Part shown: positions 25,519-38,224 of the stretch, piece by piece
Position numbering within the stretch: the stretch's first letter is position 1
Layout: each line of letters starts with the position of its first letter
Sequence record: PV611058
Length of the DNA: 64,000 nucleotides
Origin: Escherichia phage WPEC3
Reading direction: 5' to 3' (one strand)
The notes under the pieces: model-generated
Told to the model about the DNA's origin: nothing
Database searches by the model: none
What the model saw: only the letters and a program-made list of their open reading frames with translations
Made by a program: the position numbers and the translations under genes

Positions 25519-25821
25519 CTACATATATTCTAAGAATAATGTATTAGCTTCGTCTATGTTCTTAAGATAATACATGTAATACAGATTTGGTTGTCCGTCT
25601 TTTGAACTCAAATCAAAGTACTTTAAACTATGCACCTTCATGACAAAAACAAATAATGACTTAAAACCAATCTCACCGTACTTAATAAACAGTTCATCTA
25701 AATGAATGTAACTCTTAGTTTCAGATAATTCCTTCACATCAGCTTCAATTTCTTGTAAGCGAAGTTTACCGATTAAGTTTTCAAATGAACGCATGATGTT
25801 GTTCCTTATGCTGGTACACAA
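25519..25821 (-). CDS. Hypothetical protein
   Basis: 100-aa ORF. Confidence 0.4.
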   Translation of the reverse strand: MCTSIRNNIMRSFENLIGKLRLQEIEADVKELSETKSYIHLDELFIKYGEIGFKSLFVFVMKVHSLKYFDLSSKDGQPNLYYMYYLKNIDEANTLFLEYM

Positions 25822-26219
25822 TTTTTTATAATGAATACACGTTTCATGAATGAACTTTCATATACGTACTTCAGTTTACCATTTTCACGCATACGATGAA
25901 ACACATCTTTACCGCTAGTACTCCATGTTGAACCAGTCTCTGCATCAACATTGTTCATTACACCAGATGTTACGTTCACCCCGTACTTGAAGCTAAAGGT
26001 ACTGCCTTCTTCTACTAGAGGGATTGGTGTACTACGTTCATGTTCCAGTACAAGTTTACTGCCGATGATGTTGTACGAAGTTAGCTTGCATTTTAAAACA
26101 CCCATCTCTTGTGCAGTTGGGTAATTCTTCTCAAATAAATCAGATACTTCATTTGCATAACAAACTGAACTAATCATAAGAAGTAATGAACTGATAGAAC
26201 GGAAAATAACTTTTAACAT
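25806..26219 (-). CDS. Predicted secreted protein (N-terminal signal peptide)
   Basis: 137 aa; hydrophobic N-terminus ...LLLMISSVCYA followed by a polar mature region. Confidence 0.5.
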   Translation of the reverse strand: MLKVIFRSISSLLLMISSVCYANEVSDLFEKNYPTAQEMGVLKCKLTSYNIIGSKLVLEHERSTPIPLVEEGSTFSFKYGVNVTSGVMNNVDAETGSTWSTSGKDVFHRMRENGKLKYVYESSFMKRVFIIKNCVPA

Positions 26220-26232
26220 GTTTGCCTCCAGT

Positions 26233-26285
26233 AGTTGATGAAATGATTATAGCAAAAAGGGCCAACCGAAGTCAACCCTTTTCTT
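26233..26285 (-). promoter_or_regulatory. PeSL-like cassette (hairpin gggccaac-cgaa-gtcaaccc; TATAAT)
   Basis: Same cassette as 21614-21662, upstream of the ORF starting at 26219. Confidence 0.55.
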
Positions 26286-26660
26286 TTATATTTTACATGT
26301 CATGTCTGGTTTTGGCTTTTCATTCTTTGGCTTTTCAAATGGATTTGGCTTAGGGGACTTTTTATCTTTATCATCTTTAGCTTTCTTTTTGTTTTCTTTT
26401 TTATCCGATTTGTCAGCTTTGTCTTTCTTATCTTTTGAATCTTTGTCAGCTTTGGATTGTGGTTCCTCACATACAGCAGCTTTTGGCTCCGGCATATCAC
26501 ATGAGTTATCCACAGGTTTAATGAACTCTTTACAGTTGTAGAAGTATAAACTTTCATTAGTAGTAAGATTGTGGAATCTAAAGGTAGTTTCACCATTAGT
26601 ATATACTTTCTTAGTACTCTCAATATCATTACACATTGCAACTGTGTCACCGGAATTCAT
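26286..26660 (-). CDS. Hypothetical protein with Lys/Asp-rich low-complexity C-terminal tail
   Basis: 124 aa; C-terminal half KADKDSKDKKDKADKSDKKENKKKAKDDKDKKSPKP. An overlapping alternative-frame ORF (26300-26650) is considered spurious. Confidence 0.45.
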   Translation of the reverse strand: MNSGDTVAMCNDIESTKKVYTNGETTFRFHNLTTNESLYFYNCKEFIKPVDNSCDMPEPKAAVCEEPQSKADKDSKDKKDKADKSDKKENKKKAKDDKDKKSPKPNPFEKPKNEKPKPDMTCKI

Positions 26661-26898
26661 GCTCGATACCTATTACATCCGACTTACGTTCAGATAGTAT
26701 TCCAGACGTATATCGATCTTTGTTATCAAATGCATTGAACCCTATAGTTTTATTATTGTCATGTACCAATCCTCTAGTGTAAGACTTGGTATAGAACTCA
26801 CCGTTTCTAAACTCCTGTCTAGCAATGGAGCACTGGTATTCAGTACTATAAACTATATCAGTAAACAATACAAGTGAAAATAAAACATATTTAAACAT
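26647..26898 (-). CDS. Predicted secreted small protein
   Basis: 83 aa; signal-peptide-like N-terminus MFKYVLFSLVLFTDIVYS. Confidence 0.45.
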   Translation of the reverse strand: MFKYVLFSLVLFTDIVYSTEYQCSIARQEFRNGEFYTKSYTRGLVHDNNKTIGFNAFDNKDRYTSGILSERKSDVIGIEHEFR

Positions 26899-26934
26899 TG
26901 CATTACCTCTTATAAAACCCTCTACAATATTTAC

Positions 26935-35570: not shown

Positions 35571-36251
35571 AGTATCCTCAGTTGCAGTTGTTTTTTGATG
35601 TAGTTATTGTATCAAAGACGTGTCAATTTGTACAACATTTATTGTAACTATTTCGTACATATATTCAATTGCATTGAACTCTGCATACCACTCTACAATC
35701 TCACAAGCAGCATCAACTTGGGTTTTCGCATTAACACGTCTGGCATAGGTACTGCTCATTTTGAATCTACCATATTCATAGACATTGTAGACACCATGAC
35801 ACCACCACATCTTAGTCATTAATGCTAGGCCATACAGTGAATTGTAAGTCTTGGTATTCAAATTTACCAATATCATTCTTCTTACGGAATGATTCTTCAA
35901 CCTGAATTTCTGCGTCGTACTGACCATCGGCCTTTACTACGTACTTAAAATATTCTACATGTGAAAAACGATACCCTTCTCCGTCTTGCTTGGATACTTG
36001 TACTGACCCTTCAACTAGATATAAATTCATTTGTCATTCTCCATCATATTCAGTGAGTATTACACTATGTACTGTTTCAATATAGCGTTGTGTTTTTGGT
36101 GTGTTGTACTTAGTTACTTCATCAAACAATTTAAATAGTGCATGTGTTGGACTTAATGCACGAACAAATACATCAATCTTCTGTACTTCTTTCTTATAAC
36201 CACGTACATTATTAAATTCAGATACATGCTCATACACAATGTAGTAACGAT

Positions 36252-36767
36252 TCATATATTAAGTAGTTCCATAAATTCATCGATCAAGGAAGTTCTAATG
36301 CACATAACAAATTCAAAATCAACATCGATAGTATCGAGTAGTTTGAACAACTTTGGTACATTTGGATCATTCAACTGGAAGTTATGAATCAAGCTATGTT
36401 GAAACACACTTTCTTCAGTACTGTAATCAATAACAAAATATTCAGCTACACCTGGAGGTGAATAAACATCATATAATATCTGACGTTTATTGTGTGTTTC
36501 TGAACCAGGACAATATATAAGTTCTATTTCATACGAACCTGCCGAGGATCTATCATAAAACACAATTTCAGTACTGATTATTTCACTACCATCACTTCGT
36601 TCATGAAAACATACATCGGCATATCGTTTGCCATTTGGCTTCAAAATCTCATGAGTTGTTTTACCATAACATTTATCAGTTTCAATGTGAATTTTGTCTT
36701 GATATTCAGAACGTCTTACATCATTTCCACGATTAAACAATAAGATCAACAACTCATTAATATCCAT
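36252..36767 (-). CDS. Hypothetical protein; EExxFQ-motif family member
   Basis: 171 aa; ...YSTEESVFQHSLIHNFQLND motif. Confidence 0.5.
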   Translation of the reverse strand: MDINELLILLFNRGNDVRRSEYQDKIHIETDKCYGKTTHEILKPNGKRYADVCFHERSDGSEIISTEIVFYDRSSAGSYEIELIYCPGSETHNKRQILYDVYSPPGVAEYFVIDYSTEESVFQHSLIHNFQLNDPNVPKLFKLLDTIDVDFEFVMCIRTSLIDEFMELLNI

Positions 36768-37335
36768 TATTTCGCCTCGATAACCTTAAGGTTAACAAAA
36801 TCACCTTTTACTTTCATGCATTTGAATTCAGTGCGAGTTTCATCCCCACTATCGCGAGGCCAATGAGTAGCAGAGTAGCACTGGTCTGGTGTTTTATATA
36901 CACCTTCACCAATAGTACGAGTGATTTCACCATTTGTGAGAACTACTGCGAGATATAAAGTAAACATGATATTCGCCTTAGAATAATTTATTAATAATAA
37001 TAGCACCCAACGCAAGAACTGCAATAATTACAGATACCCACATTACTGCATTCACTGTACCAGTTAGTTCTTTATCAAACTCCCTGCACTTCTTACGGTA
37101 CTCTTCCCACTCTTTGTTATTCACACTGCCGCTCCTAATAGGTCGGTAGCTTTCTTCAGTACTACGTCAATTGTTTCCAGTACTGCACCTTTGTGTTCAA
37201 TTGATACAATATTATTATAAGTATCAAGGTCCAAGTACTCCATATATTCAGTTTTGAATACACGAACATCAGTACTAGTGATTTTAATATCACAACCTTT
37301 ATCCCAAATAACCTGCATCATTTCATTGGTAGTCA

Positions 37336-37611
37336 TTATTCAACCTTATCATAAACAAGTTTGTGTGTGCTTAGTACTTTGTTGAGATGTCCAGGGCATT
37401 CATATACATACAATCTCTCCTGACGTTTTTCCCAACCACCACAGATACGGCCTGATTGTGTACATACCTCATACTCGTTAATAAAAGACTTACCTGTGAA
37501 TGTACAATCCTGACGAACTAAGTCTTTTGCACTAAACCTGCCGTCATCATTACATGCTGTAAGAAACATTGTACAGAATACAAAGACAACTGTCAATAGT
37601 TTTTTAATCAT
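37336..37611 (-). CDS. Predicted lipoprotein
   Basis: 91 aa; N-terminus MIKKLLTVVFVFCTMFLTAC contains a lipobox (LTAC). Confidence 0.5.
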   Translation of the reverse strand: MIKKLLTVVFVFCTMFLTACNDDGRFSAKDLVRQDCTFTGKSFINEYEVCTQSGRICGGWEKRQERLYVYECPGHLNKVLSTHKLVYDKVE

Positions 37612-37976
37612 TTAACATCACCCCAACGGAAGCCATTCATATAATTTAAATTCACCTCAACGAGTTCATGTGTTTTTGTACACCAAATTGATAGAGTTTT
37701 TGTCACATCACCAGGTTCACGTTCATACTTCACACAATACCCTTCAATGCGAAGAGTTTTGTTAGTCCAATGTTGCCACTCAATCCAAATTTCATTAGGA
37801 TAATAAACCATATCTTCCTTGAACCTATGGTATTGATCCATCGGTAAGTGACCTTCAACTTCAATTACTTCAGCACTTCGTGCCAGTTTTTCAAGCTTGT
37901 ACTTTATTTCAGCAAGATATTCTTCATCATTCAGACGAGTTAATAAATCTGTTGCACGGGTTGTATCAAGGCTCAT
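37608..37976 (-). CDS. Hypothetical protein
   Basis: 122-aa ORF with 4-nt overlap to neighbours. Confidence 0.45.
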   Translation of the reverse strand: MSLDTTRATDLLTRLNDEEYLAEIKYKLEKLARSAEVIEVEGHLPMDQYHRFKEDMVYYPNEIWIEWQHWTNKTLRIEGYCVKYEREPGDVTKTLSIWCTKTHELVEVNLNYMNGFRWGDVK

Positions 37977-38224
37977 TGTTGTACTCCATTAATCACTGAA
38001 GTATTGATTCGTGTTTTACCGCTGCTGTATCCAGTACTGGTATTTGCATTAGGGCAATAAACTGTATACAAGGTTACACCAGCACCGTCCTTTTGCATAC
38101 GATAAATCTTACATCCTGCTTCTTGTAATTCAATAGGGAGAATAAAATCACTTGTGCGTTCTTTTGTTGAAGCGTCACATGCAGTGAGTAAAAATGCAAC
38201 GAGTACTGCTACGATATATTTCAT
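37973..38224 (-). CDS. Predicted lipoprotein
   Basis: 83 aa; N-terminus MKYIVAVLVAFLLTAC (lipobox). Confidence 0.5.
   Translation of the reverse strand: MKYIVAVLVAFLLTACDASTKERTSDFILPIELQEAGCKIYRMQKDGAGVTLYTVYCPNANTSTGYSSGKTRINTSVINGVQQ

Follow-up and report, generated by a model that had tools for sequence, protein, structure and literature searches.

Small exported proteins and lipoproteins encoded by a probably early, accessory region of an Asteriusvirus-like coliphage, and their possible role in exclusion

A 64,000-nucleotide stretch of the genome of Escherichia phage WPEC3 (PV611058; hereafter referred to as the window, to whose full length all positions refer) contains, on its minus strand between 25.5 and 46.1 kb, a cluster of genes for small proteins with export signals, interleaved with genes for small polytopic membrane proteins (28856, 30908, 33452, 34290, 34675, 43606 and 44028; genes are designated by their lower coordinate). 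Sequence analysis confirmed that the export signals are real and far above the chance level, and the proteins of the cluster are very probably exported. The best explanation, to which we assign a probability of about 0.4, is that of an early-transcribed accessory region loading the host envelope with small phage proteins, with an exclusion-type role favoured. Phage early envelope proteins are an already known kind; the families described here are uncharacterised, and the anchoring of lipoproteins in the inner membrane is a predicted variant.

The window belongs to an Asteriusvirus-like jumbo coliphage. About 14 kb around the cluster were 99% identical to the phages fEgEco12, WPEC5, BF17 and vB_Ec-M-J, and ~86% identical to PBECO4 and 121Q, which are jumbo myoviruses of 350-380 kb from the genus Asteriusvirus. 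The G+C content of the window is 31-37% (genome, 35%), and the minus strand carries almost every gene from ~15.6 kb onwards. The genome papers on fEgEco12 and Sharanji are silent on the genes of the cluster.

Signal peptides were sought among the 130 called genes by strict rules: the n-region had to bear a net positive charge, the hydrophobic core had to be free of charges and at least 10 residues long, positions -3 and -1 had to hold small residues or a lipobox had to be present, and no further transmembrane (TM) segment was allowed; lipobox calls were pattern-based. These rules recovered all five textbook signal peptides presented to them (OmpA, PhoA, MalE, Bla and Lpp) and rejected LacZ. 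Ten genes were flagged, all within the 49 genes of the 25.5-46.1 kb region (Fisher p=3e-5), as compared with 0.72 per proteome of shuffled proteins and one of 63 out-of-frame open reading frames (ORFs). An earlier note on this DNA had listed at least eight ORFs with signal-peptide-like N-termini; all eight were flagged as bearing signal peptides of the Sec or lipoprotein type, are encoded on the minus strand and match annotated coding sequences of fEgEco12 and vB_Ec-M-J. Six keep the coordinates given there, whereas two starts had been placed too far upstream: 33846-34211 had been extended to 34241 and 45402-45860 to 45866, and the trimmed starts are ATG codons with Shine-Dalgarno motifs. The two LTAC lipoboxes announced in the note were borne out (37336, MIKKLLTVVFVFCTMFLTA/C; 37973, MKYIVAVLVAFLLTA/C; here and below, a slash marks the predicted cleavage site). 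The scan also flagged 31215-31439, a ninth exported ORF that had been overlooked, and 42960-43220. The latter was judged to be a probable false positive because its N-terminus is near-invariant among relatives, unlike the drifting signal peptides, which suggests a structural beta-strand. Seven of the genes (25806, 26647, 28563, 31215, 33105, 33846 and 45402) were of the Sec (signal peptidase I) type. The predicted exported proteins are as follows (aa, amino acids):

25806..26219, minus strand: predicted Sec-exported 137-aa protein, cleavage CYA/NEV (rule scan); Cys at mature positions 22 and 112 of 115
26647..26898, minus strand: predicted Sec-exported 83-aa protein, signal peptide slightly degenerate here
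28563..28859, minus strand: predicted Sec-exported 98-aa protein, third member of the family of 33105, cleavage VLA/TPN; Cys at mature positions 6 and 79 of 81
31215..31439, minus strand: predicted Sec-exported 74-aa protein, cleavage VCA/KPK (rule scan); Cys at mature positions 8 and 52 of 57
33105..33455, minus strand: predicted Sec-exported 116-aa protein, cleavage SYA/EPL; Cys at mature positions 8 and 94 of 98
33846..34211, minus strand: predicted Sec-exported 121-aa paralogue of 33105, cleavage STA/VPA; Cys at mature positions 7 and 96 of 98
37336..37611, minus strand: 91-aa predicted lipoprotein, LTA/C-N-D-D, with four further Cys in the mature part
37973..38224, minus strand: 83-aa predicted lipoprotein, LTA/C-D-A-S, predicted to be retained in the inner membrane
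45402..45860, minus strand: predicted Sec-exported 152-aa protein, cleavage VHA/EDQ (rule scan, orthologues); mature part highly charged, with two Cys

In the orthologues from PBECO4, Turkey5, Munch and fENko-Kae01, the N-terminal letters drift, and the charged n-region, the hydrophobic core and the AXA-type site or lipobox are retained. Signal peptides and lipoboxes were conserved in this way in orthologues of 36-87% identity; that of 45402, for example, was kept in PBECO4 (87% identity) and Turkey5 (62%). The cleavage region of 33846 reads SRFSTA/VPAYLDC in the window, SYGAAA/ETYC in PBECO4 and SSSANA/VVGEELDC in Turkey5. The weakest signal peptide, that of 26647, has an Asp within the h-region, and its orthologues in PBECO4 (MKKYIIFGIVLFSSTAYG/ADYHC) and Munch are canonical. 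Exactly two cysteines were found in the mature part of six of the seven Sec-type proteins, and in five of these six one Cys lies at mature position 6-22 and the other no more than 2-6 residues from the C-terminus, a layout that is the pattern expected of periplasmic disulfide-bonded proteins.

The strongest promoter-like sites of the region suggest that the cluster is probably expressed early. Between 24 and 46.5 kb, 13 sites match TTGACA-N16-18-TATAAT at 11 or more of 12 positions, all of them on the minus (coding) strand, whereas shuffled sequences gave 1.6 +/- 1.3 such sites on both strands together; the total number of promoter-like sites was no greater than in the shuffles, and the strand bias is that of the strong sites. 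The same bias was observed in PBECO4 (14 of 15 strong sites on the coding strand) and Turkey5 (12 of 13). Such sites would be read by the host sigma-70 RNA polymerase, from which we infer early expression. Two perfect sites stand before gene series of the cluster:

38626..38653, minus strand: promoter-like site with a perfect TTGACA-N16-TATAAT, in the gap upstream of the operon 37973 (start at 38224) > 37608 > 37336
34664..34691, minus strand: perfect TTGACA-N16-TATAAT promoter-like site upstream of 34290 > 33846 > 33452 > 33105

Equivalents of the first, perfect or with 11 of 12 matches, occur near the same position in PBECO4 and Turkey5, and equivalents of the second with at least 11 matches at 18419 in PBECO4 and 18487 in Turkey5. 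The JNE01 copy of 28563 is preceded by a perfect promoter-like site of its own.

The two lipoproteins appear to differ from the outer-membrane type in the residue that follows the lipid-bearing Cys. In E. coli, the signal for avoidance of the Lol pathway is Asp at +2 followed by certain residues at +3, and entry into LolCDE is blocked by Asp or Glu at +2 and by hydrophilic +3 residues (PMC9595528). The family of lipoprotein 37973 extends over at least 571 phage records, from FelixO1-like and rV5/phiTE-like phages, jumbo phages of Erwinia and Yersinia and numerous Vibrio phages; almost all of its copies are annotated "hypothetical". Across nine lineages, at identities down to 29%, the lipid Cys, two further Cys, P30, Y41, P58, G69 and K70 are invariant, and the family has a CP(N/H) motif. 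Asp was found at +2 in six of nine aligned members (three Asteriusvirus copies, an Erwinia jumbo phage, UPEC06 and phiTE), C-D-A-S being shared with the PBECO4, Turkey5 and phiTE homologues and other lineages having C-D-Q or C-D-G; two Vibrio phages have Glu. The 37336 family is confined to Asteriusvirus and Munch-like jumbo phages, with a lipobox LTAC, LSAC or LTGC at 36-40% identity and a lipid Cys that is invariant in the four sequences, three of which have Asp at +2 (orthologues C-D-D-E and C-D-E-D). On the basis of the Lol-avoidance signal, 37973 is probably anchored in the inner membrane, and such retention is predicted with moderate confidence for most members of the 37336 family. The structure model of 37973 was too poor for a fold search, with a predicted local distance difference test (pLDDT) score of 53. 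A Pfam tag, PF16225, precomputed on all homologues of 37973 was ignored after a direct hmmscan proved negative even at E<=10. The earlier note had taken the products of the cluster for periplasmic or outer-membrane-targeted early proteins; export (scan and orthologues) and probable early expression (coding-strand sigma-70 sites) stand, but the Asp at +2 argues against an outer-membrane destination of the lipoproteins.

A second component of the cluster is a lineage-specific family of small, probably periplasmic proteins. Proteins 33105 and 33846 are paralogous (E=7e-6, with a cross-match to phrog_27330) and are joined by 28563 in a profile search (exact sequence, E=5e-15). The N-proximal Cys, the Tyr of an (E/T)(V/T/S)Y(N/R/T)F motif, a Gly and the C-terminal Cys are invariant in the family. 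An exhaustive profile search of 1.84 billion representatives returned 12 matches: about ten small-protein clusters and two Ig/cadherin repetitive adhesins, which were judged spurious as remote homologues. An AlphaFold2 model of 33105, built on the family alignment (mean pLDDT 75, predicted TM-score 0.65), has an N-terminal helix corresponding to the signal peptide, a disordered linker and then eight consecutive beta-strands, which is suggestive of an eight-stranded beta-barrel domain but does not establish it. The nearest fold in the Protein Data Bank (PDB) was that of Treponema Tp0751 (lipocalin fold; E=0.028, TM-score 0.52), followed by avidins, staphostatin and lipocalins, all of them small beta-barrel binding or inhibitor proteins, and small barrels of this kind are also present in other phage proteins, including one annotated "Lipoprotein". 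The model resembles these calycin-type barrels in its eight strands after a signal peptide, but the match in fold to them is weak, the sequences show no similarity and the family comprises only about ten small-protein clusters. No homology of 31215 or 25806 to this family was detected; they share with it only the signal peptide and the terminal-Cys plan.

The exclusion-type role that we favour would involve small exported and membrane proteins whose genes are transcribed early by the host sigma-70 RNA polymerase and which are placed at the periplasmic face of the inner membrane or in the periplasm, where they would block a post-adsorption step of superinfecting or competing phages, either cell-wall penetration or the passage of DNA across the inner membrane. 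Exclusion at a post-adsorption step is the mode of action of Imm and Sp of T4 and of Sim of P1, and Ltp of the temperate Streptococcus phage TP-J34 is a lipoprotein anchored in the cytoplasmic membrane that blocks DNA injection. The proposed mechanism would follow these Gram-negative systems and the Gram-positive Ltp, and not the plugging of an outer-membrane receptor; it shifts the hypothesis from receptor masking at the outer membrane to a post-adsorption block at the inner membrane. An exclusion-type function of at least some members of the cluster is possible, though we propose it tentatively. Superinfection exclusion, which the earlier note had named beside receptor masking as a candidate role, is plausible in this wider sense of an entry block at the inner membrane or in the periplasm.

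The similarity to T4 Imm and Sp lies in small exported proteins with apparent early expression and in the same proposed site of action. Three of the membrane proteins listed below (28856, 30908 and 34675) also resemble Imm in size and in having three hydrophobic segments each, in a large virulent myovirus, but differ from it in that a single sub-threshold Pfam match was obtained. One GenBank record labels 28856 and 30908 "immunity to superinfection", and the resemblance of 34675 to Imm is by eye only. The Imm resemblance is best treated as a lead and not as membership.

24474..25509, minus strand: three 3-TM membrane proteins in tandem, paralogous to one another, at the border of the cluster (scan, paralogy)
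28856..29119, minus strand: 87-aa 3-TM membrane protein, stop overlapping the start of 28563 by 4 nt
30908..31144, minus strand: 78-aa 3-TM membrane protein with the sub-threshold Imm_superinfect match
33452..33835, minus strand: 127-aa 4-TM membrane protein, stop overlapping the start of 33105 by 4 nt
34290..34616, minus strand: 108-aa polytopic (3-4 TM) membrane protein directly upstream of 33846
34675..34917, minus strand: small polytopic membrane protein of 80 aa, weakly paralogous to 30908 (E=1e-3)

The likeness to Ltp, by analogy alone, concerns the outer face of the cytoplasmic membrane, where the Asp at +2 would place 37973 and most members of the 37336 family; Ltp differs in belonging to a temperate phage of a Gram-positive host. 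That the 37973 family might act widely among virulent Gram-negative myoviruses as an exclusion factor anchored in the inner membrane, blocking the entry of rival genomes from the periplasmic face, is unlikely. If this were true, the family would be a Gram-negative counterpart of Ltp with a mechanism distinct from that of Cor and Llp, and the lineage-specific periplasmic barrels would be extra binders directed against the penetration machinery of rival phages. Jumbo phages have been proposed for therapy and are used in cocktails, and early envelope-directed proteins are the most likely determinants of interference between phages and of changes at the surface of infected cells. The set of genes is now defined: two probable inner-membrane lipoproteins, one of them from a family found in hundreds of virulent phages, and a lineage-specific periplasmic family of putative barrels.

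Several observations weigh against the interpretation given above. The signal-peptide calls come from a home-made rule-based heuristic. Searches of Pfam, PHROGs, PADLOC and PDB sequences with the secreted proteins and their membrane partners yielded no functional homologue, the matches being lineage-specific PHROGs of unknown function or sub-threshold noise, and none of the fold matches of 33105 reached E<=1e-3. For the predicted inner-membrane anchoring, Asn-Pro follows the lipid Cys in the FelixO1 clade of the 37973 family (21 of 21), the Ala at +3 of 37973 is only putatively a retention-competent residue, and the window's own 37336 has Asn and not Asp at +2, which is ambiguous, such that its retention is predicted with lower confidence. 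The match of 30908 to Imm_superinfect (PF14373) scored 15.7 bits over 22 aligned residues, with a cutoff of 27.9; the other five members of the 30908 family had no such match, and none of the 36 relatives found in a profile search with this family has an Imm domain. Finally, an obligate two-gene module of a membrane and a secreted protein was considered: it holds for the conserved series 34290-33846-33452-33105 but fails for 28563, a gene found in ten phage records only, whose diverged copies from JNE01 and EJP2 still have a signal peptide and the two Cys, with no membrane protein gene upstream, so the pairing is not obligatory. No paralogy was detected between the membrane partners 33452 and 34290.

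The products of the cluster might instead serve envelope-acting host takeover or counter-defence, as periplasmic proteins that bind or inhibit host proteases, cell-wall hydrolases, sensors of envelope stress or abortive-infection effectors acting at the membrane, or as modulators of surface structures such as the flagellum. The nearest folds of the putative barrels, as small binding or inhibitor proteins, would suit such a role, as would the variation in gene presence among close relatives, which is typical of arms-race cargo, and PMC11895373 relays, at second hand, that a related Asteriusvirus may use flagellar structures as its receptor. No match was obtained in PADLOC or among PHROGs with an anti-defence annotation, no specific target can be named and the fold similarity is weak, and we consider this alternative to be rather unlikely.

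Phage lysis cassettes are built from small proteins of the periplasm, small polytopic proteins of the membrane and lipoproteins. The cluster contains the same kinds of parts, several of its gene pairs are translationally coupled, and its products could accordingly be envisaged as timing or executing lysis: antiholins (like the secreted periplasmic RI of T4), holins (the 3-TM proteins) and spanins (a lipoprotein with a membrane protein). This is quite unlikely, since the sigma-70 consensus promoters point to early and not late expression, no endolysin is annotated nearby in fEgEco12 or vB_Ec-M-J and paralogues are far more numerous than a lysis cassette requires. The resemblance to two-component spanins of the Rz/Rz1 type lies in a lipoprotein gene translationally coupled to its neighbours. 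The i-spanin/o-spanin pair of 121Q and PBECO4 has, however, been curated at another locus (PBECO4 39,998-40,678; o-spanin ...IISGC-A-E-Q; PMC6139136, supplement) and is unrelated in sequence to the lipoproteins of the cluster, and the gene between the two lipoprotein genes encodes no TM segment, on which grounds a spanin role was excluded; Asp at +2 would also be wrong for an outer-membrane o-spanin.

37608..37976, minus strand: 122-aa soluble protein with no TM segment and no signal peptide, overlapping both lipoprotein genes by 4 nt

The trio 37973-37608-37336 is conserved in Turkey5.

According to a further alternative, the lipoproteins would be "lytic conversion" lipoproteins of the Cor/Llp type, which sit in the outer membrane's inner leaflet and plug the phage's own outer-membrane receptor. 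GenBank entries (fEgEco12 and vB_Ec-M-J) label 37973 "Cor superinfection exclusion protein", and 37973, 37336 and 26647 bear the label "lytic conversion lipoprotein". Cor (T1, phi80 and N15) and T5 Llp are likewise small phage lipoproteins, ~60-70 aa when mature, with conserved cysteines and probably early expression, and both 37973 and 37336 have a lipobox with its Cys (LTAC). In addition, 37973 weakly matched the Cor family phrog_1119 (E=9e-4, residues 1-49), and its nine-member family profile aligned with full-length T1 Cor with a hhalign probability of 92% (the T1 Cor and T5 Llp sequences were taken from the reference genomes). This similarity resides in the signal peptide. BLAST alignment of 37973 with T1 Cor covered residues 2-24 alone, corresponding to the signal peptide and lipobox; the mature part of 37973 gave no BLAST alignment with T1 Cor or T5 Llp, and mature-only hhalign probabilities fell to 0.3% (Cor) and 0.8% (Llp), whereas the unrelated E. 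coli Lpp, included as a control, reached 45% against the same full-length profile. The loss of similarity in the mature parts and the score of Lpp indicate that the GenBank Cor/Llp label is a signal-peptide artefact, and a propagating mis-annotation is thereby corrected. Beyond the signal peptide, the sole similarity was that of mature residues 20-30 of 37973 (EAGCKIYRMQK) to residues 8-18 of mature Llp (DIKCEAYYMQD), around the first non-lipid Cys, which accounts for the 0.8% and is probably due to chance; a PDB sequence search gave no match to Llp.

Other features also separate these lipoproteins from Cor and Llp. The +2 residue is Ser in Cor (C-S-S) and Llp (C-S-T) but Asp in 37973, and 26647 has no lipobox at all, despite its label. 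The cor and llp genes adjoin the receptor-binding locus (PMC11990801), T5 llp abutting oad (pb5) and T1 cor being located within the tail-gene region, with tail protein genes on one side and the tail fibre gene on the other. By contrast, 37973 and 37336 lie among small early genes and not beside a receptor-binding protein gene, as do the homologues of 37973 in six other phages, including FelixO1, UPEC06, phiTE, an Erwinia jumbo phage and Vibrio phages. The flagellar receptor mentioned above, if correct, would weaken the analogy with porin-plugging lipoproteins still further. Membership of the Cor/Llp family is thus largely refuted, receptor plugging of this type is very unlikely, and the possibility, raised in the earlier note, that products of the cluster mask receptors is not upheld for the lipoproteins, in view of the Asp at +2, the disappearance of the Cor similarity without the signal peptide and the lack of an adjacent receptor-binding gene.

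That the N-terminal hydrophobicity is a chance product of an AT-rich genome (35% G+C; Phe, Ile, Leu and Lys codons) and the proteins are not exported is extremely improbable: the strict scan did pass one probable false positive (42960) and one out-of-frame ORF, but the ten flagged genes stand against 0.72 expected and are clustered, the signal-peptide architecture is kept despite sequence drift, the lipobox Cys is invariant over nine lineages and the cysteines of the mature parts are paired.

The gene content of the region varies among relatives, which is indicative of its accessory character. PBECO4, Turkey5, Munch and fENko-Kae01 all lack the 28856/28563 pair; PBECO4 also lacks 30908 and has a truncated 25806, with a kinase gene at that place. 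Overlaps of 4 nt, of the ATGA type, link 45402 to 44962, 37973 to 37608 and 37608 to 37336, 33452 to 33105, and 28856 to 28563. The product of 45402 matches phrog_36332, a PHROG of unknown function. The gene at 26647 and its downstream neighbour overlap by 14 nt in different frames (26647-26898 and 26286-26660) and correspond to the N- and C-terminal halves of a single secreted protein of 202-204 aa in Munch and fENko-Kae01 (37% and 36% identity). The split, which is also present in PBECO4, could reflect decay of the gene, a pair of separate proteins or a frameshift product. The neighbours concerned are:

26286..26660, minus strand: ORF of 124 aa, rich in Cys and Lys/Asp, that lacks its own signal peptide (ortholog comparison)
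44962..45405, minus strand: 147-aa protein with an N-terminal membrane anchor, overlapping the upstream gene 45402 by 4 nt

Two genes within this early-looking region rich in envelope proteins, 26970-28481 and 29329-29712 (minus strand), carry the label "virion structural protein" in relatives, and their products share an N-terminal ...Y(L/V)(D/N)SLGLL... motif. Tandem arrays of seven (15617-18056) and three genes (24474-25509), both on the minus strand, encode predicted 2-4-TM proteins of 104-123 aa; the trio is weakly linked to the larger array, and both are conserved in PBECO4 and Turkey5.

A recurring hairpin, AAAGG(G)TTGACTTCGGTCAACC(C)TTT followed by a T-run, with a UUCG tetraloop, was found directly after stop codons on the minus strand (41018-41043, 32894-32917, 28521-28542 and ~26938-26963). 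Its stem contains TTGACT, corresponding to a -35 box, with TATAAT or TATACT 17-18 nt further on, such that the element has the look of a combined terminator and promoter that punctuates the array of genes. A similar hairpin element with a perfect promoter precedes the 28563 homologue in JNE01 (L013:1390-1460). Just upstream of the cluster are genes for a phage-encoded sigma factor (RNA polymerase) and an HslV-like protease subunit (41048-42533, minus strand); the intervening gap of 660 bp contains a terminator hairpin and a sigma-70-like site with 11 of 12 matches.

Elsewhere in the window, the plus strand at 107-15580 encodes about ten paralogous proteins, mostly of ~260-450 aa, nearly all of which start with MLPF(A/V)R(M/L)(V/F)(K/D)YGN; the annotation "chromosome condensation regulator" or "DNA condensation protein" is attached to the Munch homologues and, for one member, to its fEgEco12 copy. 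At 53520-58477, the minus strand carries six clustered tRNA genes (Thr, Asn, Met and three Ser); a called ORF there, 55475-55624, is no gene but a tRNA region in translation. Among these tRNA genes, at 57794-58280 (minus strand), are three tandem 54-aa paralogues, all starting with MTHEEWM, and a fourth similar ORF (MTHKEWL) lies 2 kb from this trio, at 60330-60512 on the same strand.

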